From Lingula anatina (Eukaryota; Animalia; Brachiopoda), in contig CM120640.1 in the NCBI GenBank assembly GCA_051362555.1, positions 27,552,503 to 27,616,502 of the forward strand: a stretch of DNA of 64,000 nt, written 5' to 3'. Positions 4,351 to 62,329 of this stretch are shown piece by piece (the first letter of the stretch is position 1; each line of letters begins with the position of its first letter). Below the pieces are notes generated by a model. The model was not told the origin of the DNA and did not search any database. It saw only the letters and a program-made list of their open reading frames with translations. The position numbers were made by a program, and so were the translations under genes.

Positions 4351-5236
4351 CGGGTATGCCATATATTCCAAGGGTTTTATTGTTTCAAGGGTCTGACATT
4401 TTGAAGATTGAAGGAGCCAAGTACAAAAATCAACTGCTGTTCCAAGGGTTCGATATCCCTAAGGTTAGAGAGCCCGATATTCCATATGATTCTTAGTCAG
4501 AAGGTCTGCTGTTCTGAAAAAGGACAGCTGCACTTAAACGCAGTGTTATTACTTACATGTGCAGACAGGCGATTTAAACTGTAAATTTCGCAATGTGTGT
4601 GTTAGTATATTGGGTATATAGAGCAAATTCTTGATAGCAGTATATGTACTGCATGTTCAATTCCTATGGCTTCTGAATAGCAGACCTTCGGAGCAAAAGT
4701 CCCTCTGAACAAAAAACCTTCGGAGCAAAACCGGTGTGACTGAAATGCGCAATACACCGCAATACAGCGCAACACAGTGCAATACACTTCAAAAAATCAA
4801 ATCCAGTTGCAATTACACAAAAGAAATGACCGTTCCCAGCAAAGTAGGGTGATATAAAAACAACCTATATTACTAGGTAAGTAATATCGTTGAAATAACT
4901 TAACAAATCAGCAAGACTTTTATATTGTCGTGTTGGCAGCCATGTTGGCGAGTGGCTCTTCTTGGATATATTACTGGCCAAGAAGAGCTTTTCGCCAACA
5001 TGGCGGCTGACCAAACAGTGAAAAAATTGTCAAGTTGTATCAGCAATATTAATTACTATGTACTATATTTTGCTTTTATATCACCCTATTTTATTTGAGA
5101 TTACCCTTTCCTGTGTTTACTTGCAACTGGACTTGTGTTATCAAGTGTATTGCGCTGTGTTGCGCTGTATTGCAGTGTATTGCGCATTTCAGTCACACCC
5201 GAGCAAAAGTCCCGTCGGAGTAATAGATATGCACCT
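4351..5236. mobile_element. Degenerate MITE with subterminal repeats and candidate 8-bp TSD, host of a nested foldback element
   Basis: TTTCAGTG at 4343-4350 and 5237-5244. Left-arm repeats (TTCCAAGGGTT, CAGAAGGTCTGCT) mirror right-arm repeats (AGCAGACCTTCGGAG). Confidence 0.55.
4731..5200. mobile_element. Foldback MITE, near-palindromic over ~470 bp, with 8-bp TSD
   Basis: GGTGTGACTGAAATGCGCAATACACCGCAATACAGCGCAACACAG at 4733 is inverted at ~5143-5199. Further inner inverted pairs are present. GAGCAAAA is duplicated at 4723-4730 and 5201-5208. Confidence 0.85.
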
Positions 5237-7000: not shown

Positions 7001-9600
7001 AACTAGAGGATCAGAGAGGCGATACCGCCTCCAAATATTGTACCACCAGCTGGAGCAAGCTCATTCATGTAGACCCCCACATACACAAAATAAGGGACAC
7101 AGCCACCAGTTTTGTGCTTGACAAGCTGTAAAAATGCAATCAACAAGAATTTTTAAACTATTGCAAAAAATATATATGGTACAATCAAATTTAAGTTCTT
7201 CGTAAGGTAGGTCAAGGGTCAATTTCTCTGCCAGTTTTGGAGATAAAAGGGAAGCAAAATTTGCAAAGTTCAGTTTATGGTGAAAAGTAGGTCAAAGGTC
7301 AATTTTAAGGTCACATTTAGATTGCCAGTATATGACTTCCTATTCAACTTCAATAGTAACTATGGACCTATCTCTGCCAGTTTTAGAGATAAAAGGGAAG
7401 AAAAATTTGCAAAGTTCAGTTCATGGTGAAAAGTAGGTCAAAGGTCAATTTTAAGGTCACATTTAGATTGCCAGTATATGACTTCCTATTCAAGTTCAAT
7501 AGTAACTACTGACCTATCTCTGCCAGTTTTGGAGATAAAAGGAAAGCAAAATTTGCAAAATTCAGTTCATGGTGTAAAGTAGGTCAAAGGTCAATTTTAA
7601 GGTCACATTTAGATTGCCAGTATATGACTTCCTATTCAAGTTCAATAGTAACTATGGACCTATCTCTGCCAGTTTTGGAGATAAAAGGGAAGAAACATTT
7701 GCAAAGTTCAGTTCATGGTGAAAAGTAGGTCAAAGGTCAATTTCAAGGTCACATTTAGATTGCCAGTATATGACTTCCTATTCAAGTTCAATAGTAACTA
7801 TGGACCTATCTCTGCCAGTTTTGGAGATATATGACTTCCTATTCAAGTTCAATAGTAACTACGGACCTATCTCAGCCAGTTTTGGAGATAAAAGGAAAGC
7901 AAAATTTGCAAAATTCAGTTCATGGTGTAAAGTAGGTCAAAGGTCAATTTTAAGGTCACATTTAGATTGCCAGTATATGACTTCCTTTTCAAGTTCAATA
8001 GTAACTATGGACCTATCTCTGCCAGTTTGAGAGATAAAAGGGAAGAAAAGTTTGCAAAGTTCAGTTCATGGTGAAAAGTAGGTCAAAGGTCAATTTCAAG
8101 GTCACATTTAGATTGCCAGTATATGACTTCCTATTCAAGTTCAATAGTAACTATGGACCTATCTCTGCCAGTTTTGGAGATAAAAGGGAAGCAAATTTTG
8201 CAAAGTTCAGTTTATGGTGAAAAGTAGGTCAAAGGTCAATTTTGAGGTCACATTTAGATTGCCAGTATATGACTTCCTATTCAAGTTCAATAGTAACTAT
8301 GGACCTATCTCTGCCAGTTTTGGAGATAAAAGGAAAGCAAAATTTGCAAAGTTCAGTTCATGGTGAAAAGTAGGTCAAAGGTCAATTTTAAGGTCACATA
8401 TAGATTGCCAGTATATGACTTCCTATTCAAGTTCAATAGTAACTATGGACCTATCTCTGCCAGTTTTGGAGATAAAAGGGAAGAAAAATTTGCAAAGTTC
8501 AGTTCATGGTGAAAAGTAGGTCAAAGGTCAATTTCAAGGTCACATATAGATTGCCAGTATATGACTTCCTATTCAACTTCAATAGTAACTATAGACCTAT
8601 CTCTGCCAGTTTTGGAGATATAAGGGACTAAATGTTATAATTTTGGAGTTACCATAATGTGCCTTAAATTTTGTACAGAAAAAATTAATTAAAATAAAGA
8701 AAATGTCATTTTGGTCAAAATTCTTGAAATAGGAGGTGCTCTGAAGTTTCAGAAGTTCAAATTTGATGAAATAATGTCATTTTTGAACACAAGTTGTCTG
8801 CTTTGCCAAGCCTAATGTTTTATTTTTCCAGAGTTCAAAATTTATTATCCATTACCGTACTGCACATTTTGCTTTTACCACCAATATGTACTTTTTGATA
8901 CAGCGTAACTCGAAAACCGTATGGAATACAAAAAAACCGAGACCACCTCCAGTGTTGGGCTTTACATGCTCTACAAAATGCAAAAAAGAATGGGTCTCTA
9001 GCATTAACGGTTCCCGAATTAGAGACAGTTTTCAGTTTCCGTATCTTATGGCCGCTACTCCCGTGAAAATGCACCGATTGACCCCAAATTCATGGAGATG
9101 AAAGATGACCTGAAGGGTAACACTTTCCAATAATATTATTGGTTAAGTCTGTGTGGTGTCTGAATAACAGGGCAAAAAAATTTTTTTTCGTAAAAAATTT
9201 CATTTTTTTGAAAATTTTGGCCCATTTGACCTTGAAGTAAAGGTCAAAGGTCAAATCCAAGGGTATATTTGAAATCTACACATATGACTTTTGGAAAGCC
9301 GTCTATAGAAATTTTTCCCATAACTCCTTCCGTAGGGTAGATAATTAGCATTTAATTTTGCCATTTTTAGACAAGGGTGCATTGCAATGAGTGCCACACC
9401 CAGACCCCAATACCGACAAAGCCCAAATTTTACGTGGAACGAGTTGAGATTATAGGTGACCTAAATCCATGAGATGGGTACGGGGGGCCTTACCGTCTAG
9501 GAGGAGAAGCGGTAACGGTAGCCGTCCGGCGGAGCCGGCGGAACGATCCGGACGGGACCGAAACCATGTGTACCGCCAGCGCTAACGCTGGTGGTACAAT
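7001..9600 (-). mobile_element. Helentron-associated non-autonomous element (HINE/DINE-like) with internal tandem array
   Basis: Perfect 14-bp subterminal inverted repeat ATTGTACCACCAGC (7037-7050) / GCTGGTGGTACAAT (9587-9600). Hairpin TGTACCGCCAGCG-CTAA-CGCTGGTGGTACA (9569-9598). Terminal palindrome GAGGCG-ATAC-CGCCTC (7016-7031). The end reads CTAGTT on the minus strand. No TSD. Confidence 0.8.
7205..8625. repeat. Tandem array of ~9.5 copies of a 146-bp unit
   Basis: GTAGGTCAAAGG recurs at 7287, 7433, 7579, 7725, 7932, 8078, 8224, 8370 and 8516. The period is 146, with one 207-bp interval caused by a 61-bp partial duplication. Confidence 0.97.
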
Positions 9601-12034: not shown

Positions 12035-35273
<23,239 letters not shown>

Positions 35274-37178: not shown

Positions 37179-37654
37179 TCTACTTCCTTATGTTAAACCA
37201 TAAAAGTAGTTTTTTTCTTTGTATTAGTAAAACTATTCTGAGACAAACATACAATCAATTTTGTTTGTCATGTTTCCCAGCTGCAAGGAAGTTTCTCAAG
37301 CATATCACAAAACTGCACAAACTGAGAAAAAAACAATGCTCATGTATTTGTGGTCAATCTCTTTCAAATCATGAACAGCAGTGGAGGATAAACTTTACTT
37401 CAACAAAAATATATTAACTCTACTTCCTTATGTTAAATCAGAAAAGTTTAATTTTTTTCTTTGTCTAAGTAGAAATATTCTGAGAGAAAACAAACAATCT
37501 ATTTTGTTTGTCATGTTTCTCAAGCACATCACAAAATTGAACAAACTGAGATAAAAAACACAATACTCTTACGTGCATCATGTATTTGCGGTCAACCACC
37601 CTCAAATCATGAAAAGCAGTGGAGGATAAACTTTACTTCAAAAATATATTAACT
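37179..37654. repeat. Diverged two-copy tandem duplication, ~240-bp period
   Basis: TCTACTTCCTTATGTTAAA starts at 37179 and 37419. Both copies contain TTTTGTTTGTCATGTTTC and GCAGTGGAGGATAAACTTTACTTCAA. Confidence 0.85.
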
Positions 37655-37778
37655 CCTAATAACATACTATGCCAGATCTTAAGGTGACCCCCTTAACTGT
37701 TATTACAGTATGATTTAGAATTGAGTTCACTAGCATATATGTATATATAGCTGGGTAAATAAAGTGCTGTATACTCAC

Positions 37779-50100: not shown

Positions 50101-50830
50101 CTACAGGCTACAATTCAATAAAAGGCAGCATAATAAAAATGAGTGGTGTATTCAATTTCAATTAAAAACAAACTAAACGCTAAAATACTTGTGCTGAAAA
50201 AAGTATTGGGTAAAAAGAACAGTAGTGTCTAACTTAATTTTCAAAATAATGATCACTGCTATATATAAGTCATATTATTAAAATTAACTCATGCATTAGA
50301 TTCTATTGTTACTGTTATCATAGAAGTAGAGAACCGGTAACTAAATATAACCACGTAGTTAAAATGTCATTGGTTCACGATATTACATTAAAATGTTTTA
50401 CCCCCTGTTAGCTTTGTGCCAGTAGATTCGGATACGCAACGTTTAACAAAAGGCTTCTAATTCCTGGCTATAATGACATTTTCTTCTTGTCCGAAATAGC
50501 TCTGTTCAGTTTTTGTCGTGATAATAAAATTTTGCTGATTAGTTCTTCAAACTAAAGCATACTTTTAAACTCAAGGTAGCTGGTGACAAAGTCAATTGAT
50601 AAATAAGATTCTTAACATAAAAATAATTATTTTAAAGTGTACGTAATACAATTTCAAATATAGCTATAAACTTTGTAATTGGACATTTAATTATTACTGT
50701 CCGTTTTTGCCACGGTGAACTAATCGAAAAGATGTGCGTGAAGTGTGTTTGTTGAGATTGGGGGAACTTGGCGCGTGTGGGAATCAAAAACATTCCGTTT
50801 ACAATTGTGCTCACCGTGCGTTGGAGGTAT

Positions 50831-51885
50831 TTCAATTGTACCATGGCCCATAGGAGCCTACGCGTGCGTCTTTTAGACGCCCCTTTACATGCGAAAACGA
50901 CAAGGCCTATGCCGAGTTCGTCTTTTACTACAGAGCTTTGAGAGCCGAAAATGACATGGCTGTGTCTCTTTCGCCACTTACTGAACTCCACAGATGCGAG
51001 ATTGACACGACCCATGTCGCGTTCGTCTCTCAAATGACACTGTTATAAAACATGAAATAGGCATAACGTGTGATTTTCGCAGCTGAATAAGTAGACCCTT
51101 ATAAACGAAGTTGACGTAACTTGAGAGTCATGTCGCTTTCAACTCTTACAAACCTCCAACAAAATCTATCTCCACACAGACGCGCGCGACATGTACTATT
51201 GGACATGGGTCAGTTGAAACCCTATTAACCTAAAGGGCTCATGTTACTTTCAGCCAACTCTTATATGTCAAATCCAATTAATTTGAAACAGTGCTGTGCT
51301 GTCCCAAAACATTTTTTTCATTTGAATCCCATCATAATTTAGTGCTATCTAGATAACAGTGTGGCTAATTGCTTGTAATAATTATATGGCCTCATATTTT
51401 TATTTTCAAGGATTCAAATAAAAAGGGTTTTAAGACGGTCCTTCTGTTTCAAATTAATTGGCTGAAAGTAACATGAGCCATTTAGGTTAATGTCGCTTTC
51501 AACTGACCCATATCCAATAGTACATGTCGCGCGCGTCTGTGTGGAGATAGATTTTGTTGGAGGTTTGTAAAAGTTGAAAGCGACATGACTCTAAGGTCAC
51601 GTCAACTTCGTTTATAAGGGTCTACTTATTCAGCTGCGAAAATCACACGTAATGCCTATTTCATGTTTTATAACAGTGTCTTTTGAGAGACAAACGCGAC
51701 ATGGGTCGTGTCAATCTCGCATCTCTGGAGTTCAGTAAGTGGCGAAACAGACACAGCCATGCCATTTTCGGCTCTCAAAGCTCTGTAGTAAAAGACGAAC
51801 TCGGCATAGGCCTTGTCGTTTTCGCATGTAAAGGGGCGTCTAAAAGATGCACGCGTAGGCTCCTATGGGCCATGGTACAATTGAA
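50831..51885. repeat. Long inverted duplication (arms ~50831-51291 and ~51444-51885, ~150-bp spacer)
   Basis: The arms are highly similar reverse complements; the ORF track shows near-identical translations at 50632-51033(-) and 51683-51889(+). No flanking TSD is visible. Confidence 0.95.
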
Positions 51886-53184
51886 TTAATTTTGGTACAT
51901 TTCGCTTATTTGTTTTTTTTTTTTTTTTTTTTTTTTTTTTTGATGAAATTTATTAAAAAGAAGGATTTAAGTCACTAACGTAAATGCTTTTCACCAGTTA
52001 TAAAATTGATATGCATGCTTTACCTCTCAACTCACATCTGATTTATTCTTATTTCTGCACCTCGATCTTTAGGTGTGTTTATAATATTTTTACATCATCA
52101 AGAAAACCAAGTCAAAACACATCAAAGCCAAACAAACAACGATTTGAAGTCGTTAAAAGAACCCTAGCCAGAATCCGAATAGGCCTAACGATTATCTTGG
52201 GCGGTTTTTTTTTTTTACTCTGAAAGTTCTTTGATCCGAACATCTAGTGAAACGAGGCCTTTTAATTCCGAAAAGCTTTCTCCTAGAAGGCCATTTGCTC
52301 TTAATTTTTATCGCTGATAGAAACCTTATCTTTGAATAAGCAGCTACATATACGCCAGTAGCCATGTTTGGGTGTGACATATGAATAAGGCGTGGTCCTT
52401 CACTCCTAAATATCACCCTTGTTATAGACCTATAGAAAATAATGCAAAAGAGTTATGCACGCTTCATACTGACAAAAATGAACGAAAAAGATATGTATCA
52501 GTGGGAATCGTCTAAATGCTATTAAGGATATGTAAACGGTTTTTATATTCTCGATTTAGCATCAAACGGTCATGAACAGGCAAAAGTTTTCTTATCAAAG
52601 TGAATTCAGGTCATGTTCAGGCGACAGTTATTCCATTTTTTCTTATAAGTTGGTTAATACGAAAGCGAGCCTTAATGTAATTTTTATAAGCCCTTATTAA
52701 TCTAATCCTTTTTGCGGAATTGTCAAAATCATTATAACTTTAAAGTGGCATCCGTTCTCCCTTATATTTTATGGGATAATTTCGATAAGAACCAATTATT
52801 ATAGAGACACTGGAACTGGGACATTAACCTTGTTTTGCAATGTCAGCTAGTGAAATAGGACACTACTCGACATTTGTTATGCATGGTGGCCGTTAATATC
52901 CAATATTGTAAGTAAACACTTTTTCTCTTTATTCCTGTCGAGGATTCATAGCGTGCGCGGTGCCTCGTTTGTTAAAACGTCCATTGGGCAGTCTTCGTTG
53001 TCCTTTGACTCCCAACCGTGACGGAGACAAGCTAAGAGGGAAAACGTAGTGCATACAGTCACATGACTGATATATATTTATGAGTGAATACATATATATG
53101 TGTATTGCGCCTCTAGTGTACCGTCTGAAGTGGCACCGGGGACATAAGTACAATAATTGAAGCAAACTTAAGAAATTTACAGCG

Positions 53185-56100
53185 ATGGAGACGACCATTC
53201 CTGCACCCCACGAAGTTTACTTTGGCCCCCCTTACGGAAGCCACGAGCAGTGGCAAAACAGAGCATACAACATTGTCGAGGAACACTTAGGAAAGGAAGA
53301 TTTCGAGAGAAGATTAGCCAAACAGTTTCAGGTATTTTGTTTTTTACAAGATTTAGGTTAGGTGAGGTCTGTAACATTTTTACCGCGAATAGTACCGTGA
53401 ATTGTACTCTTGAAGCACCTGTGCTTTATTTAAGAAATATCATATATCGTATGCACTGAGGTTTGACAGGTTCATGCTGGCGGTTGATGCCATAAGTATA
53501 TGCCTTCCTCCGTGCTGAGATTATTATTTGTCATTATTCTTGTTGTCAAGCTTAACACGTGTAGTTTTTTTAAATGTAATTATGTGTTTGGCTTTGCACA
53601 CTTTTGTCGCGAGGCAGTTGGGTACGTCGTATAGTTGTCTTTTGTCACAGTGGATATGTTCACTGCAATAAGAACAGGTTTTGCTTGATGTAGGCCTACC
53701 TTTGCAACATCAATGCTTCATTTACTAGTCGACCCAGGCGACATTCAGTGCACGCAGGCATTCGATACACATATACAAATTTAACAAAAAAAATCCAGCC
53801 AAGTATAAAGAACCATTTCGAGCTTTTCATAAGATTATAAGATACACTATTACAAATAGATAACAAGATGCCGAGGTCACTGCCTCCATAGAATTCTTTC
53901 CTCTGACATTTCAAGAATTATTAGAACGTGTCCTCTAGGTCAGCTAAGCAAATTTCACCAGCTTCTGTTTGTTCATCTGCCTTGTAACCTTGACAGTCAT
54001 GGCGAGAAGATCATATATCGCATTTGCAGCAATTTCCCTTTAAACAATGATGCATAATGAACATAAAGAGATGTATTATAGTATTGAAAATATCAATTTA
54101 CTGCATATCATAAGGCCGTCTATATGCCTATTATGGAAAATCGAGTGCTGTAAATAAGAGGAGTATATAGTCTGATCAAATACAAATCGGAAATTAAACC
54201 TAAATCCACATTGCAGTAAGCAGGGCCCGCATTAGCTTTATTTGAAGTCTCGTGAATATTTCACGATGACATCAGACGATAGGCCAAAAGTTTACGTTCT
54301 ATCATGGCCATGCTGAAAATGATCAAATTTATGAACAAGAAATGTAACGTAAATGACAGATGTAGGCCCATTAGAAAGTTTTTTTTTTTTTTTAAATTAT
54401 GAAGGCCTTTACAAAGCACGTTGAAGGTCAGTGCATGTACCATGCATGCAAGTAATTTACTTTGTAATTACTTTATAAAGTAATTTGCAAAATGTACCTG
54501 CCTTTTCACTTGAAATATGTTTTAAACCCCATCTAAAACTTGCCCCCTGTGCCATAAGGTTCTGTTGTACCTATTCACTTTTTGTTTTTAATATTAACAG
54601 AAAACAAAGCACAAGTTTTCTTCTGTTTATATATTACAATATGAATAATATATATATAAATAAAATTGTAGGACGGTTACAATACTCCGACTTGGTTGAG
54701 CGGTTTGAAGTTGTCATGGAAGTCTACCAAGATCAGGAACCTTTTTGGTCTAGATTCCATAAAGGGGAACGGATCATTCACCTATCATTCTAGCGTTGGA
54801 GGAGCGGGGTTCGCTGTTTTATCCGAGGTAAAAATCTGTGTGTTATGGAACTAAAACTCATTCTTTCCAAGGAATATCGAAAACAATTTAGCAACGTTAT
54901 TTAAATTATTTCTAATGAAAAAACTAGTTTACATTTTTCTTTTTTTTTCCTTTCTACTACACAAAGAATCTCAATATACCAGAAAACGATTTCTTCAAAC
55001 CGGGAAAAGTGTTCCCCATACGCATGCGCCATGCAAATCTGTTCACAGACGACGATGCAAGTTGCGACTTTCGCTTGGCAAGTTTGAAGTTTGCTGATGA
55101 GGACGGCGGAGGGCCTCTTGATTTGATTTTCTCAACAGGTCGAATGCCTTTATTCTACAACTTGGCCGAATTAGAAAAGCTGGACGGAGCTCTAGGAAAA
55201 CAAGAGGACGGGTTTAGGAAATGGTTGTTTGAGCGTCCCATCAAGTGAGTTGATGCTAGATATCACTATACTTATCTTTTTTTCTGACGCTTTTTGGCGG
55301 TTTTTCATCACTTCGATATTATATCGTTTAGGGTAGATATATCGCCTTTCTGCTATATAGATTATCACAGAGTTATAAAAACATTTTGCTACTTCTATGA
55401 TATTTATATTTTTTGAAATAATGCGGATCATTTTGCTCGTAAATTAGCATTTTTTATTTCACTTGATTTTCCTTGTGTGTTTGTGTGTGTGTGTGTGTGT
55501 GTGTCAGACTTTGTTTCAAGTGCCCATACCGTACACTTCTCCTGTCATTTTTTTTTTCATGTGCGTTATATACTTTCGTGTACTCCGTATCTTTCGCATG
55601 CAGTTATTGGGCAGCTGTGGACGGTATGAGACGCGCACCGACTTCATATTCATCCCAGGTTTATTACAACCACTTCACCTATCACATGACGTTTTCTGAC
55701 GAAAGCACCGAATTGGTTCGGTTTCGACTGGTTCCCGCCGCGGATGTTTCAGAAAGTGGGCTTCTTAACGAACAGCAGCAAAAGCAAGCTTGGTAAGGTC
55801 GAATATTTCGATATTTAATCTATCGGCTTCACTCTTGTTAAAAATGTGAAATGTTATTATTTCAAACCATGTCCACCTACCTAAAACACCATAGGCTACA
55901 ATGACCCGTTCATCATTTCACAAATTTGAATTTATCTTGAAATAAGAACATGGAATTATAATAAAAGACTAATGATTTTGTTGGTTGATGTATCTTCTAA
56001 TTTGACGTTATCAAAATCATATTTTCAGCAAGCGTGATAAAAAAATCTTTAACCCCGAAGCCAAATCGATGATTTTAAAACCACTTTTCACCATTTCGAA

Positions 56101-59100
56101 ACAAATAAAAATTGCTTTTCATAATTCCCATGATTCATTTTATTGAACATTGTATATTCAGGGTCAGAGAAAGACATTCAGATATTGGTAATCGTGAGAG
56201 CTACCTGAGTGAGGAATACGAGTCTCAGGTTGAGAAGCACGGTGCTGTGAGGTGGATTCTACAGGTAGTGGTCTAAACTTTTAATTCACAAACTAAGGAG
56301 AAGGCCCACAACTTGACATTCTGAAACATTCTGTATTATATGCAAAGATTTCGGCTCAGCTGATAATTACCTTGTACGTGCAACTGAAAGAAAATGAATG
56401 TGGCAAAATTTGCATAATGAAGCTGTTCAGTAGTTGGCTGTTCAGTTATAATATTGCTCAAGTAAAGTGATAACTGCATGTGATCTGCCTTTCAATTAAG
56501 AAGATTTAAGGTATACACTTATCTACTTGTAAGCAATGATTTAAGCTGGCCGTCATTCAGTCACCCACAACTCTCAATATGTGTACAGGTACAGCTACAT
56601 GATGTGACCGAGCTTTCCGGCTACAACCCATGTGAGCTATGGGACCCCGTAACCCATCCATGGCGCAATGTGGCGGACGTCTTTGTAACAGGAATTCTCC
56701 CTGCTCAATTCACCGACAAGATGGACTTCAACATAGACAACAGGCCCGATATCCTCTCATTTCCTGAGGCGAAATCTGTTTTTGATTTCAAGTCCGCCAA
56801 CAAAGCACTTCAAATTATGTATGAATGTCACCAGACACGGATGCAGCGTCGACAAGTTCTTCAAGACCCTGAGGAGAAAGTTTCCTCTTACGTTATCACG
56901 TTGGAGTCGGGACAACAGAGCCGTTCCGGTACCCTTTCGTCAGTACAGGTAACACTGCAAGGTACGTATGGTATAAAGACACCCTTTGCGCCATTGTAAA
57001 TATATCATCTCAGGCATATTGCAGGGCCGAGTCGAATCGGTACGCCAAGTTTTTTAAAGCGGTGCCCAGCCCGTAGTTGCTTACAAAAAGCTTCCCTTTC
57101 CAGGTAAAACCAGACGCACAGGCCGACACACACTCAGCAACGTTTACCTGACGTCAGGACTTCATGTGCACCTTGTCAAAGACCGGTCGATAGGCAACTT
57201 GATTGCAATACAAGTTGACATCCGTCATCGGTTGTCCAGTGATTGGTACCTCAACCGACTTTTAGTGACTTGCTTGGAAAGGAACGAAACTTACGTTTTT
57301 CCTTGCTTTGCTTGGTTCACTGACGATAACAAAACCATGGTTCTAAGACCAGATCCGGCAGGTAAGGTATATCTTTTAAGAATACACTAATATCACGTAG
57401 AAAGATACACACACACACACACTGACAGTATACAAGTACTCTTCATCAAGATGCGATAAAGAACCATGTGGCCCCTGAACCATTGGCAACCATTGAATTT
57501 CATTTTGGGTTAATATTGGTGTTTTCATGAAATTTTCTCTTTTTTAGTGTCTCTGCCTCAGATGGAACAATACACCAAGCTTGCGGTAGTGCGCAAGTGG
57601 GAGCTTCAGAAGAAGAAAGAGCAGTATCGCTGGGCAGATTCAAAGACCGTGGTCAAAACTCAGGTGGGAAATCTAATGTCAATATTGCATGACTTCTAAA
57701 TGTATTAGTTGGAAGAAACATATTTTTTAATTGTTGTTATTATTCTCATGACAACTACGTTACCTTTGCCAGTTTTTTCGTGGGAAAGAAGGAAGAAGCT
57801 GCAAAGAATACGAATGTGTTCTTTGCGGTAAAGAAAAGCGACATTTATCCTATTGGAAATGGTGGAGGGATATATGAATGACATAAAAAGTTTACTTTAA
57901 TCAAGTTTATGTCGCTCAGGTTGAAGGGCACAATGAAGACAACCTCCCAGGGCGGATCGCTGTGAAAGAAATGAAACATCTACCTAGAGATGCCCAAATA
58001 CCTGAGGAACGCATAAAACACTTCTGGCACAACCTGAACGCTGGGTTCCTCAACCTCCAACTGGGGCGCCTGGCATCTCTGATTAGTGAATGGAAGCACA
58101 CTGACGACTTTAAAACCATGGTGAATAGGCTTTTGGAGAAGACCGATACCATGGACTATGTTATGGAGCATTGGACTGAAGATAAAGAATTTGGGCGGCA
58201 GATGTTGGATGGAACGTATCCAACCCTCATTCGTCGGTTGGCAAGTCTTCCACCTAACTTCGTTGTGCCAGATGACGCTCTTGTTGGTGTACTTGATAGG
58301 GGACGCACTTTGGGAGAAGAAATCCAGGTGAAATGTTAATTGGGTCACGATTGTACTTATCACATACACAGTTGATGTTTCGTTTAAGAAAGAAAGTTAA
58401 AACTGAGATGTCAGTATGTTTACAAAATACTAAAACTCAAAGCAATACTCGTTTCTATAAGTTTTCAAACTTACACAATTTATATTTCATCCAGGAAGGG
58501 ACTATCTTCATGGTGGAGTATCCAGACCTGCAAACAGTGCTGCGTTATCCAGACCGTTACGTAGCAGAAGCCACCTGCCTCCTGTACGTACGCTCTGACG
58601 GAGCTTTGGTTCCAATCGCAATACGTCTTATACAGTCCTCCGACAGCCATGAGCAGATTTGGACCCCTAACGACAGCCCGATGGACTGGCTGTGTGCCAA
58701 AATTTGGGTGAAGTGCGCCCACTACCAGTACCATCAAATTGTTGGCAGGATGATGTGCAGGTTAATGTTGGAACCAATTGCGGTGGCACTGAACCGTTGC
58801 TTGTCTGTGGCTCACCCCGTGTATCAGCTACTGCAGTCCCATCTTAAGACCGCCATTGGAATCAATGTGATGGATCGCCAGGTCTTTGGAGCGGGGTACA
58901 ATGAATTTCTAGCAATTGCTGCCGGGGGACACATCGCCCTGTTGAAGAAAACCTACAAGAAATTCACCTTCAAGATTTTGAACCTGCCGCTGGATCTGGA
59001 GACCCGTGGTGTTGACGACCCAGCAGCTCTACCCAATTATCACTACCGCGACGATGCCTTGGCCCTCTGGCAGGTAATCCGGCAGTTTGTAGAAAAGATG

Positions 59101-59951
59101 ATCTCACTTTTCTACCACTGCGACTCAGACGTCGCTGGGGATGAAGAAATCCAAGCTTGGATCGACGAATGCCATTCTAAGGGATTCCTCAACTGGGAAG
59201 AGAACATCGACCACGGGTTTCCAGACAAGATCAGTAGCTTGGAAGGGTTATCTGAGATACTGACCAGTGTGATCTTTACGGCAACTGGTCAGTACGCAGC
59301 TCTCAATTATTCACAGTATGATTACAATACGTTTGCTCCCAATATGCCTTCCACAATGAACAGACCACCACCTAAAGAAAAGGGTGTCGTCACCATGAAG
59401 TCGATCGTAGAAATGTTGCCAACCAGACGACAGACCGCGTTCTCCATTGCTGTTGCGTACGCGATGTCTCGGCACGAAGGGGGCGAAGTGAGTGTCAATC
59501 GTCTACTGGTACCAATTCGTGTGATCGTTTATAATAAAACGAAAGTAGCTGTTTTTAACGGTGTAGATATTGCATGACGATGGCTAATCATAAATTGATA
59601 AGACTCAAAATTACGTTTTATTAGCTCAATGTTGACGAAAACATAAATGAAGATTCCTTCACGTCCAGACTTATTACCTTTTACACGTAATTGGCCTTAT
59701 TCCCCATATTTTTAAACAACAGTTACAATTTTTGTGTTTATGATTGTTTTTTTTTCTTCTTAAAATACTAGGTGCTGCTTGGGAATTATCCAGAGTACAG
59801 TTTCACCGAGCCTGGGCCGAGAAAGGCAGTGGACAATTTCCAGGGGGATTTGAAGAAGTTATCCAGTGCTATTCATGTACGCAACAGAAAACTTGCGGTT
59901 CCGTATCGCACTCTCTTGCCTGAGAAAATCCCCCATTTCATTGCCATATGA
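53185..59951 (+). CDS. Allene oxide synthase-lipoxygenase fusion homologue (catalase-like AOS + PLAT + LOX, 1066 aa) with catalytic residues substituted
   Basis: 11 exons: 53185-53331, 54672-54827, 54967-55244, 55604-55792, 56162-56264, 56589-56961, 57104-57361, 57548-57663, 57920-58327, 58495-59487 and 59772-59951 (3201 nt, no stops). AOS motifs: FPIRMRHANL, SLKFAD..GPLD, MRRAP and LWD..THPW. PLAT motifs: DWYL and FPCFAW. LOX motifs: W.EDKEFGRQ.L.G, PIAI.L, WLCAK.WV, LPNYHYRDDAL, and C-terminal IAI. Confidence 0.93.
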
Positions 59952-62329
59952 TGAGTCTAAGGCCGTTTTGTATAACTTCATACTCGGAGCCCCGAGGTTT
60001 CATGAGGTTTAAGAGGCGGTTCTCCTCCTTATTCTTCCCAACGTCACTTTAATGACCTAGCGCACGTGATGTGTGTGACAGTTCAGAATGAGCAAGATAA
60101 ATACACAGATTCCAACGCTCCAACTACACTTTATCAAGTTTAGATGCCTAGTACTGGAACTTTTTTAACCTACGGTGATACGAATGATATTCAAGGGTTT
60201 CAAAAACCCACGTCAGCAAGTTTATACAACTTTGCTCAATATATTTTGTATATTTATATGGCGAAGGGTTTGTAAAAGTAGCAGCAGTAGCGGGGAAGGT
60301 GCACATGCTTTTAGCTTTTAGGGGACTGGTGATGGTTTTTTTCATCCTTTTAAGTCTGTTCGAGGGAGACCTACTTTTCCTTTTAAATAGAGAAAATACC
60401 AGCCCCTGCCAAAATAATGTCTACTAAGTGCGCCACAATAAAAAAATCCAATGTGTAAAAAAGCAATTATTTACTGGTCAATAGGGTGATGGTTTAAGTA
60501 GCGAGTAATTGTTAAATAATTCTTGAAAATGTGTTTGTACCAAACTGTATCCTACCGAAGACATTTCAAACTTACTGTATTAAGTTTTGCTTTTTATTTG
60601 CTTCTACAAAACATTATACAGCATTATGCTGCAGCAATAAACAAATTGTACAACATGCAGTACGTTCTCTATAACCACATGAACTATGCTAACTTCACTT
60701 TTTTTTATACAAAATTGAAACTGAGACAGATATTGACGATGAAATAACTGTTGCTTTGAACAATAAGTGTATCATTAATATAAAGTGATATACGTCTTCC
60801 AGTGCCTTTCTCCACATTCTACATTAAGCTACCTATTCAACATGGCACATTTAAGGTAAAGCTCACAGAGCTTGCCATTATGTAAATGCTTTTTATAACT
60901 TCATATGTACAACTACACAAGTGAACTACAATATCAGCAACAAGTGAGCTTTTTATATTATTTTACAATGTATGTATTATTCATCAGATGATTAAAAACA
61001 AGATGATTCAAATCTTTTAACTCTTGTGTTATTCTATAACAATTGCTGCAAATTTGTCAGTGTGAAAATTCACCCAAAGAGATGTTTATATTGCTTTTAA
61101 ATGTTCTTTATTCTCCACCACTGACTTTCACGTGCATTTAAATTATCTATATACAATATTGTCAGAAAATACTCATATATTTAAAAAAATGAAAATCTGT
61201 GAACACATTCTTCTACAAAATTATGAAGCTTGTTAATATACTCCCTGCGAATCAAATAATCATGTTACACAAACACCAGAAATAACTTACATTCAATGCA
61301 AGCATAATTATTTGGTAAATTCACCTCTTAATTACAGTTTCATTCTGAAAAGATGACATTTACAGCTTGAAAAGGTGTGATAAAAACCTAGCAAGATCAG
61401 AGAATTGCTTTAACCTATTAATGTTACATGCACATTTACGAACAGACAATAAAAAATTATATCTTGTTTATGTTTTTTTTAACACTTATTCATCATATGT
61501 ATTAGTCTTAAGGCTGTAAACATGGTGAAGAACTTTTCAGCAAATCAAGTGTTTAAAAATGTGCTGACATTTAAGGCAAATCTAGATTAGGATTACAGAA
61601 GTACAGGCCACTTTTCATTTTTACCACCAAAGAATTTTAGTAAACCATATGTAATGATCACAATTTTTATGAGCATGTTATGACAGCACAGGTCAGCAAA
61701 TGCATACTCACCGAAATAATTGTTTCTACTGCTCATCTTATTTAAAATTATACCTGACAAACCTGAAGTATCTAAATTAGCTTTTTCTTGTGTCTTAAGT
61801 TCCAGTGTTATGCTGGTCTGTGTTGTTGTTTTTACCATATAAGAGCATGCCTGTAGTATTATATGTTTCAAAACTTCTATTCATACCTGAGAAAAGCACA
61901 TGGCTGCCATCAAGCACCATTCAGCAATTTAAAATGATAGAAGTCTGAATCTTAGACCTCAGTTCTTTACAGTTCAAAAATTACAAAGCTGATCCTAAGA
62001 GTTTACAATTCAATTCATCCTGTCTTAAAACAATTTACAAACCTTGTAAACATAATTTTCATGGAGATCAATGCCCATATCCACATTTGCAGTGCCATGG
62101 GCACCTTATCAAAGCAATAACAAAGTGTATATAATATATATATTCATACTAAAAATTATAATAAACAATAACAAAAATTTAACCTTATGTATCATCTTTC
62201 TTCCTTCTTGTATATTGAACCATAATAAATATATAATCAGGCATTAAGTGAGGCAGATGTTCTATCTACAAAATTCCATGCAATAGAACACCCAATTCAC
62301 AAGAATAAGTTTGAAATAAATATGTAAAT

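Follow-up and report, generated by a model that had tools for sequence, protein, structure and literature searches.

A 64,000-nucleotide stretch of DNA from the brachiopod Lingula anatina (assembly GCA_051362555.1, contig CM120640.1, positions 27,552,503 to 27,616,502 of the forward strand; hereafter the window) contains a gene that fuses an allene oxide synthase (AOS) domain to a lipoxygenase (LOX), and residues needed for catalysis are replaced in both. Judged from its sequence, the product belongs to the AOS-LOX family by ancestry and fold, fails the residue tests of an active LOX and of an active AOS, and likely works like a pseudoenzyme: catalytic residues are lost, and the gene is expressed and conserved. 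Database entries continue to call it an enzyme. Binding of the catalytic metal by a LOX is impossible once its three histidines are lost, and hydroperoxide is not split by a haem domain of the catalase type that lacks its distal histidine. On this established chemistry the protein very probably has neither dioxygenase nor allene-oxide-synthase activity. We give a probability of about 0.5 to the reading that it is a soluble scaffold or regulator, a metal-free pseudoenzyme kept for its fold and surfaces. The gene and the sites discussed below are as follows.

53185..59951, + strand: AOS-LOX fusion gene, 11 coding exons, 1066 codons, ATG to TGA, from the exon model and RNA-read joints
53185..53331, + strand: exon 1, residues 1-49
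54672..54827, + strand: exon 2, with Ser84 (54774), Thr86 (54780) and Tyr87 (54783) at coral Arg64, Thr66 and distal His67
54967..55244, + strand: exon 3, with Arg122 (55027) at Arg102, kept, and Ser157 (55132) at distal Asn137
55604..55792, + strand: exon 4, AOS domain
56162..56264, + strand: exon 5, AOS domain
56589..56961, + strand: exon 6, with Leu365 (56808) at Arg349, Tyr369 (56820) at proximal haem Tyr353 and Met376 (56841) at Arg360; start of PLAT
57104..57361, + strand: exon 7, PLAT without the loop that bears Trp413/Phe414 in coral 8R-LOX and without Tyr448/Trp449
57548..57663, + strand: exon 8, from the exon model and RNA-read joints
57920..58327, + strand: exon 9, start of the LOX catalytic domain, Leu at the substrate-carboxylate site Arg555 (Arg182)
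58495..59487, + strand: exon 10, core of the LOX catalytic domain
58747..58761, + strand: Arg761 and Arg765 at the iron-ligand sites His757/His762, spaced by 4 residues, not 5
58873..58887, + strand: Gly/Ala stereo-switch (Coffa) position taken by Asp803, invariant-Leu position by Val806/Phe807; the coral enzyme is 3 residues longer here
59293..59307, + strand: Tyr943 at the third His ligand, Asn947 kept, from codons and alignment
59772..59951, + strand: exon 11, Ile1066 (59946) then stop, with His1062 where most relatives have Asn

The three fixed His ligands are common to all LOX (excerpt of PMC13059375) and were invariable across 153 sequences (excerpt of PMC3840004). In alignment with coral 8R-LOX, His757, His762 and His943 (numbered after an excerpt of PMC5793058) fall on Arg761, Arg765 and Tyr943, and the Lingula protein has one residue fewer between the first two. 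The codons are AGG at 58747 and at 58759, downstream of a CAT His codon at 58732 that starts HQIVGRMMCRLMLE, and TAC at 59293; AAT at 59305 encodes Asn947, and ATA at 59946, in the next exon, encodes the C-terminal Ile. The original prediction, made from the letters of the window, had claimed these three replacements, a ligand helix shortened by one residue, and retention of the Asn and the C-terminal Ile; codons and coral alignment agree with it throughout. Among 143 aligned relatives, out of 212 proteins collected, all three His are kept in 129 and at least one is lost in 14. The ligand helix has its longer form in 139 of 142 rows, is one residue short in two (the Lingula protein and one amphioxus protein) and two residues short in one. 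LOX enzymes carry a pi-helical bulge in this helix, which the original prediction expected to be removed by the missing residue. The secondary structure of our model gives one helix class for pi and alpha.

A change from His to AGG requires three base changes, here at each of two codons. Two RefSeq records (XP_013388118.1 and XP_013385825.1) share the Arg, Arg and Tyr. Contigs of runs X9 and X10 span 58660-59340 ungapped, with no listed change at either Arg codon and a synonymous change only at the Tyr943 codon; the differences from the window considered are 25 of 25 for X10 and 17 of 18 for X9, apart from nine weaker rows, so that the RNA runs may still differ at the Arg and Tyr codons. The same residues in the two records, together with contigs clean at the Arg codons, argue against an assembly error; the original prediction had argued against a single read error.

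The AOS domain is altered as well. AOS activity requires His67, Thr66, Asn137, Tyr353 and Arg64/102/360 (excerpt of PMC5617202), and also Arg349 (excerpt of PMC5793058). Residues 23-381 align to the coral structure 1U5U (E=5e-59), which identifies a catalase-like domain fused to LOX. At the distal site Tyr87 replaces His67 and Ser157 replaces Asn137, with Thr86 kept; His88 follows Tyr87, and the register is set by flanking glycines. The haem-site arginines Arg64/102/349/360 correspond to Ser84, Arg122, Leu365 and Met376, so that one of four is kept, and Arg375 adjoins the Arg360 position, one residue before it. By this residue comparison with the coral enzyme, only Thr, Tyr and Arg102 remain of the AOS essentials.

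Further changes were found in the substrate channel and in PLAT. The Gly/Ala stereo-switch, which is Gly427 in coral 8R-LOX (excerpt of PMC13059375), is Asp803 in the Lingula protein, the only one of 132 rows with Asp at this site. The column of the invariant Leu is occupied by Phe807 according to MAFFT and by Val806 according to HMMER. Three residues are missing near the stereo-switch relative to the coral enzyme, and the equivalent of Arg182 (Arg555) is Leu. The membrane-inserting residues of 8R-LOX are Trp413, Phe414, Tyr448 and Trp449 (excerpt of PMC1934363). None of the four has a counterpart in Lingula PLAT. The acidic residues of the 8R-LOX membrane loop, which we take to be calcium ligands, are likewise absent, and neither a signal peptide nor a membrane helix was detected by hydropathy.

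The scaffold around these sites is that of the family. The domain order is catalase-like AOS, PLAT and LOX catalytic domain, and Pfam assigns the LOX (PF00305, E=4e-64; the stretch 58498-59487 matches as lipoxygenase) and PLAT (PF01477, E=8e-9) domains. An AlphaFold model built from a 95-row alignment has a mean pLDDT (predicted local distance difference test) of 90.8 and a template modelling (TM) score of 0.92 against 8R-LOX, the range over 8R-LOX and 5-LOX being 0.92-0.95. The LOX part superimposes on 4QWT with Z 49.3 and a root-mean-square deviation (rmsd) of 2.0 over 658 aligned residues, and the AOS part on 1U5U with Z 46.2 and rmsd 2.0 over 354. The model leans on active relatives and thus shows fold compatibility and says nothing on the site; exon 10 folded as a single sequence gave a pLDDT of 36. 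Of the LOX columns that 80% or more of the relatives conserve, the Lingula protein keeps 67 of 75, against 68/75, 69/74 and 74/75 in His-intact relatives, and the iron ligands account for three of its eight changed columns. As read from these aligned columns, loss is concentrated at functional sites and the scaffold is ordinary.

The gene is intact and transcribed. GT..AG borders occur at 10 of 10 introns, and a single open frame with zero internal stops ends in Ile. Raw reads from four of nine RNA runs were placed on the gene (311, 18, 309 and 353 reads). All ten exon joints were seen in runs X12, X18 and X19, from two studies, and two of ten in X15; the last joint in X12 carries a variant letter. 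In the stranded run X12 the read direction matches that of the gene. Rough RNA density was 7, 0.5, 8 and 9 reads per kb per million across the four runs, the X12 figure including intron-1 reads. Six residues separate the protein from XP_013388118.1, and eight separate it from XP_013385825.1, a shorter record on another scaffold. Ile722, Ala819, Ala854 and Gly927 (58630-59247) are private to the window allele; at these positions RefSeq and the reads or contigs agree on a different residue.

Selection was assessed over 226 codons within 58660-59340, with neutrality modelled at kappa 4. Between the X9 and X10 contigs there are 24 synonymous and 3 non-synonymous differences, giving a ratio of non-synonymous to synonymous differences per site (pN/pS) of 0.034 (p=1.2e-10). 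Synonymous to non-synonymous counts are 19:6 for the window against X10 and 14:3 against X9, and pN/pS is 0.03-0.09 over the three pairwise comparisons. The other domains gave 12:6 (AOS, p=9e-4) and 5:2 (PLAT, p=0.03), among 36 coding differences drawn from the best 40 of 221 listed. Taken together, the model's pLDDT and TM score, the 67 of 75 conserved columns, expression and purifying selection support the intact, metal-free LOX fold of the original prediction. Its scope, confined to loss at the LOX site, was too narrow; the changed AOS domain, the stereo-switch and the membrane loops had been overlooked.

The Plexaura homomalla AOS-8R-LOX (PDB 3DY5, 1U5U, 2FNQ and 4QWT) has the same three-domain order and the same length of 1066 residues, and matches at E=2e-183. 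Coral Asn947, Ile1066, Thr66, Tyr353 and Arg102 are common to both proteins. In contrast, the coral His757/762/943 are Arg/Arg/Tyr in Lingula, His67, Asn137, Arg64, Arg349 and Arg360 are replaced, Gly427 is Asp, Leu431 and Arg182 are replaced, and the membrane loop is missing. Mammalian eLOX3 (ALOXE3) offers another comparison, having the LOX fold and little dioxygenase activity and yet being essential (excerpt of PMC13059375); it retains iron and acts as a hydroperoxide isomerase, whereas the Lingula protein lacks the ligands that this needs.

AOS catalytic residues have likewise been lost in stony-coral AOS-LOX sequences (PMC5793058) and in bivalve and nemertean fusions. Their LOX ligands are intact, whereas both sites are changed in Lingula; the excerpt of PMC5793058 describes AOS-degenerate coral fusions with intact LOX sites and single His changes in two Acropora sequences. 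Such fusions in our collection (P0003, P0004, P0067 and P0070, from coral, bivalve and nemertean) possibly represent an intermediate state. Loss of both sites, with long frames, occurs in Branchiostoma XP_035691859.1, XP_035681464.1 and XP_035693140.1 and in Nematostella XP_048590066.1. The XP_035681464.1 group shares with Lingula the change of the third His to Tyr and the one-residue deletion. The Branchiostoma and Nematostella proteins have other replacement residues and group in the tree with the enzymes of their own phylum, and counterparts in B. floridae and B. lanceolatum share 90-97% identity.

Rows with lost LOX His include three amphioxus groups and Nematostella XP_048590066.1 and, as LOX-only proteins, sequences of Ciona, Clavelina, Styela and Tubulanus. 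Further LOX-like proteins that have lost iron ligands (P0065, P0068, P0073, P0245, P0108, P0113, P0128, P0193, P0155, P0181 and P0043) have amphioxus, Nematostella, tunicates and a nemertean among their sources, and several carry a bulky stereo-switch residue. An AOS region is present in 34 rows. LOX His are lost in 11 of these. In 10 of the 11, AOS His67 or Tyr353 is absent as well, and the remaining one is an incomplete gene model; the 11 rows amount to about six lineages and are not independent events.

Trees were inferred with FastTree and with IQ-TREE, the latter from 33 of 95 rows under LG+G4 with the ligand columns left out. In the IQ-TREE result the Lingula protein joins a nemertean protein that is His-intact and AOS-degenerate (support 97/87). 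The approximately unbiased (AU) test rejected a tree that holds it together with the amphioxus protein having the same Tyr and the same deletion (p=1.3e-4), for a pair picked after FastTree, under a simpler model, and in a tree whose outgroup is not one side of any branch and whose root is unsure. On these alignments the Lingula and amphioxus proteins with both sites changed likely arose independently.

How the protein might work without its metal can be proposed in part. Arg761 and Arg765 would supply the positive charge that Fe2+ otherwise provides, with the C-terminal carboxylate and Asp803 as counter-charges, and the one-residue-shorter helix would place both Arg on one face of a plain helix. 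This extends the plausible salt bridge from Arg to the C-terminus in the original prediction. The substrate channel would be shut by Asp803 together with Phe807 and the shorter arched-helix loop. This picture of a filled pocket and a closed channel has, in our estimate, an even chance of being right. As the channel is likely closed and both the membrane aromatics and a signal peptide are lacking, strong selection points to fold and surfaces; the selected function could then be protein binding, most likely to active oxylipin enzymes or to the partners of these enzymes, which is the least secure step. A wider version is more tentative. It holds that animals have repeatedly made a class of AOS-LOX proteins with both sites lost (brachiopod, amphioxus and sea anemone, with LOX-only forms in tunicates), and that the Lingula Arg pair is a stand-in for Fe2+ in a closed network of charges that also takes in the C-terminus and the stereo-switch Asp, yielding a metal-independent LOX fold that regulates oxylipin signalling.

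Several observations weigh against the scaffold or regulator reading. The fourth metal ligand (Asn, His or Ser in active LOX) and the free C-terminal Ile or Val are present as Asn947 and Ile1066, Gln950 is retained too, and Tyr is able to ligate iron (excerpt of PMC3840004). The proximal haem ligand Tyr353 is kept as Tyr369, alongside Thr86 and Arg122. Arg accounts for 9 of 26 replaced ligands in relatives, no commoner than mutation predicts (p=0.31), so an enrichment of Arg at lost ligand sites is unsupported. Coral AOS-LOX is a monomer (excerpt of PMC5617202), which leaves no inherited dimer surface. The selection comparison is confined to a single species label. Three protein searches, which were word-indexed and weak, gave no orthologue in the range between 44% and 98% identity, and the named matches of these weak searches held neither an orthologue beyond the species label nor an active Lingula paralogue. 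A search of 50% clusters, which masks members of the protein's own cluster, gave neither of them. A metagenome scan for orthologues gave 108 pattern matches, of which zero were confirmed, the ESM Atlas returned ordinary LOX clusters only, and exon 2 alone, too short a query, had no match among PDB sequences.

A non-catalytic binder of lipids or oxylipins is a doubtful alternative to the scaffold reading. Both folds would keep their hydrophobic cavities, and the new Arg would hold a ligand carboxylate. Both folds are indeed predicted intact, most cavity scaffold columns are kept, and an unpaired Arg in the LOX cavity would suit a fatty-acid carboxylate. Against this, the stereo-switch Asp, the changed Leu, the lost Arg182, the short loop and the lost aromatics suggest a closed channel and poor membrane access.

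Altered chemistry is improbable. Here the AOS domain would keep haem through Tyr369, with Tyr87 as sixth ligand or His88 as base, and serve as a store, a sensor or a slow peroxidase, or the LOX domain would hold metal through Tyr943, Asn947, the C-terminus and one of His752, His756 and His1062. The kept Tyr369, Thr86 and Arg122, a His88 one residue from the distal position, the potential of Tyr as an iron ligand, and His1062 at a position where Asn is common (82/135 rows) are consistent with such a role. However, two of the three haem-holding Arg and the Arg beside the proximal Tyr are lost, a cation would be driven off by the two Arg that occupy the iron site, His756 is the usual non-ligand His of the family (107/140 rows), and other relatives with both sites changed have lost the proximal Tyr too.

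Recruitment as a bulk structural or storage protein in one tissue, in the manner of an enzyme-crystallin, is less probable again; loss of catalytic and targeting features with the fold kept would fit it, as would the roughly 15-fold spread in read density between runs (0.5-9), but density is moderate in all four runs, below what a bulk protein would show. A decaying transcribed pseudogene or an assembly artefact could draw on the six private changes relative to XP_013388118.1 and on the lack of an orthologue outside the species label, but is very unlikely given the open frame, canonical splicing, the low pN/pS, the same residues in independent records and contigs, and the three base changes at each of two codons.

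Some further observations concern the transcripts and the surroundings of the gene. Runs X18, X19 and X10 (53100-60400) are mutually alike, and their coding sequence departs from that of the window by about 4%, which suggests a distinct population or a cryptic species under one label. In X12, plus-strand reads cover most of intron 1 (53588-54563) at exon-like depth, as a retained intron or an inner start would produce; the start of XP_013385825.1 at Met121 would be compatible with a transcript that omits exon 1. Four X12 reads join 50107 to 53700 on the minus strand and thereby link intron 1 to an exon of the neighbouring POPDC gene (Popeye domain, PF04831). The skipped part starts with CT and ends with AC, as a minus-strand intron would, so that the POPDC transcript begins inside this intron, in head-to-head overlap with the AOS-LOX gene. 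An imperfect 1-kb palindrome (50828-51888, 86% self-identity), probably a foldback or MITE (miniature inverted-repeat transposable element)-like element, lies 1.3 kb upstream of the start codon, and smaller self-matches occur at 4733-5199 and 37179-37655. Elsewhere in the window are a tandem array at 7225-8636, with a unit of about 146 bases and copies up to 96% alike, and, on the minus strand at 19353-21752, a 799-codon low-complexity Ser/Glu-rich exon with no Pfam match that forms one gene with 26939-27589.

In the literature searched, neither this gene nor a LOX pseudoenzyme of this kind was the subject of a paper, most subscription papers being outside the search. Ligand-less LOX genes in zebrafish are reportedly mentioned in a 2015 review, and ligand loss as such may already have been noted in print. 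The excerpts of PMC10889196 and PMC6612559 contain nothing on LOX pseudoenzymes.

That a gene whose two active sites are both filled is under strong selection shows a non-catalytic use of the LOX and AOS folds, and the Lingula AOS-LOX is a clean natural protein in which to find it. Eicosanoid pathways in invertebrates are inferred from the genome labels 'AOS-LOX' and 'ALOX5', and some of the proteins so labelled probably produce no oxylipin.

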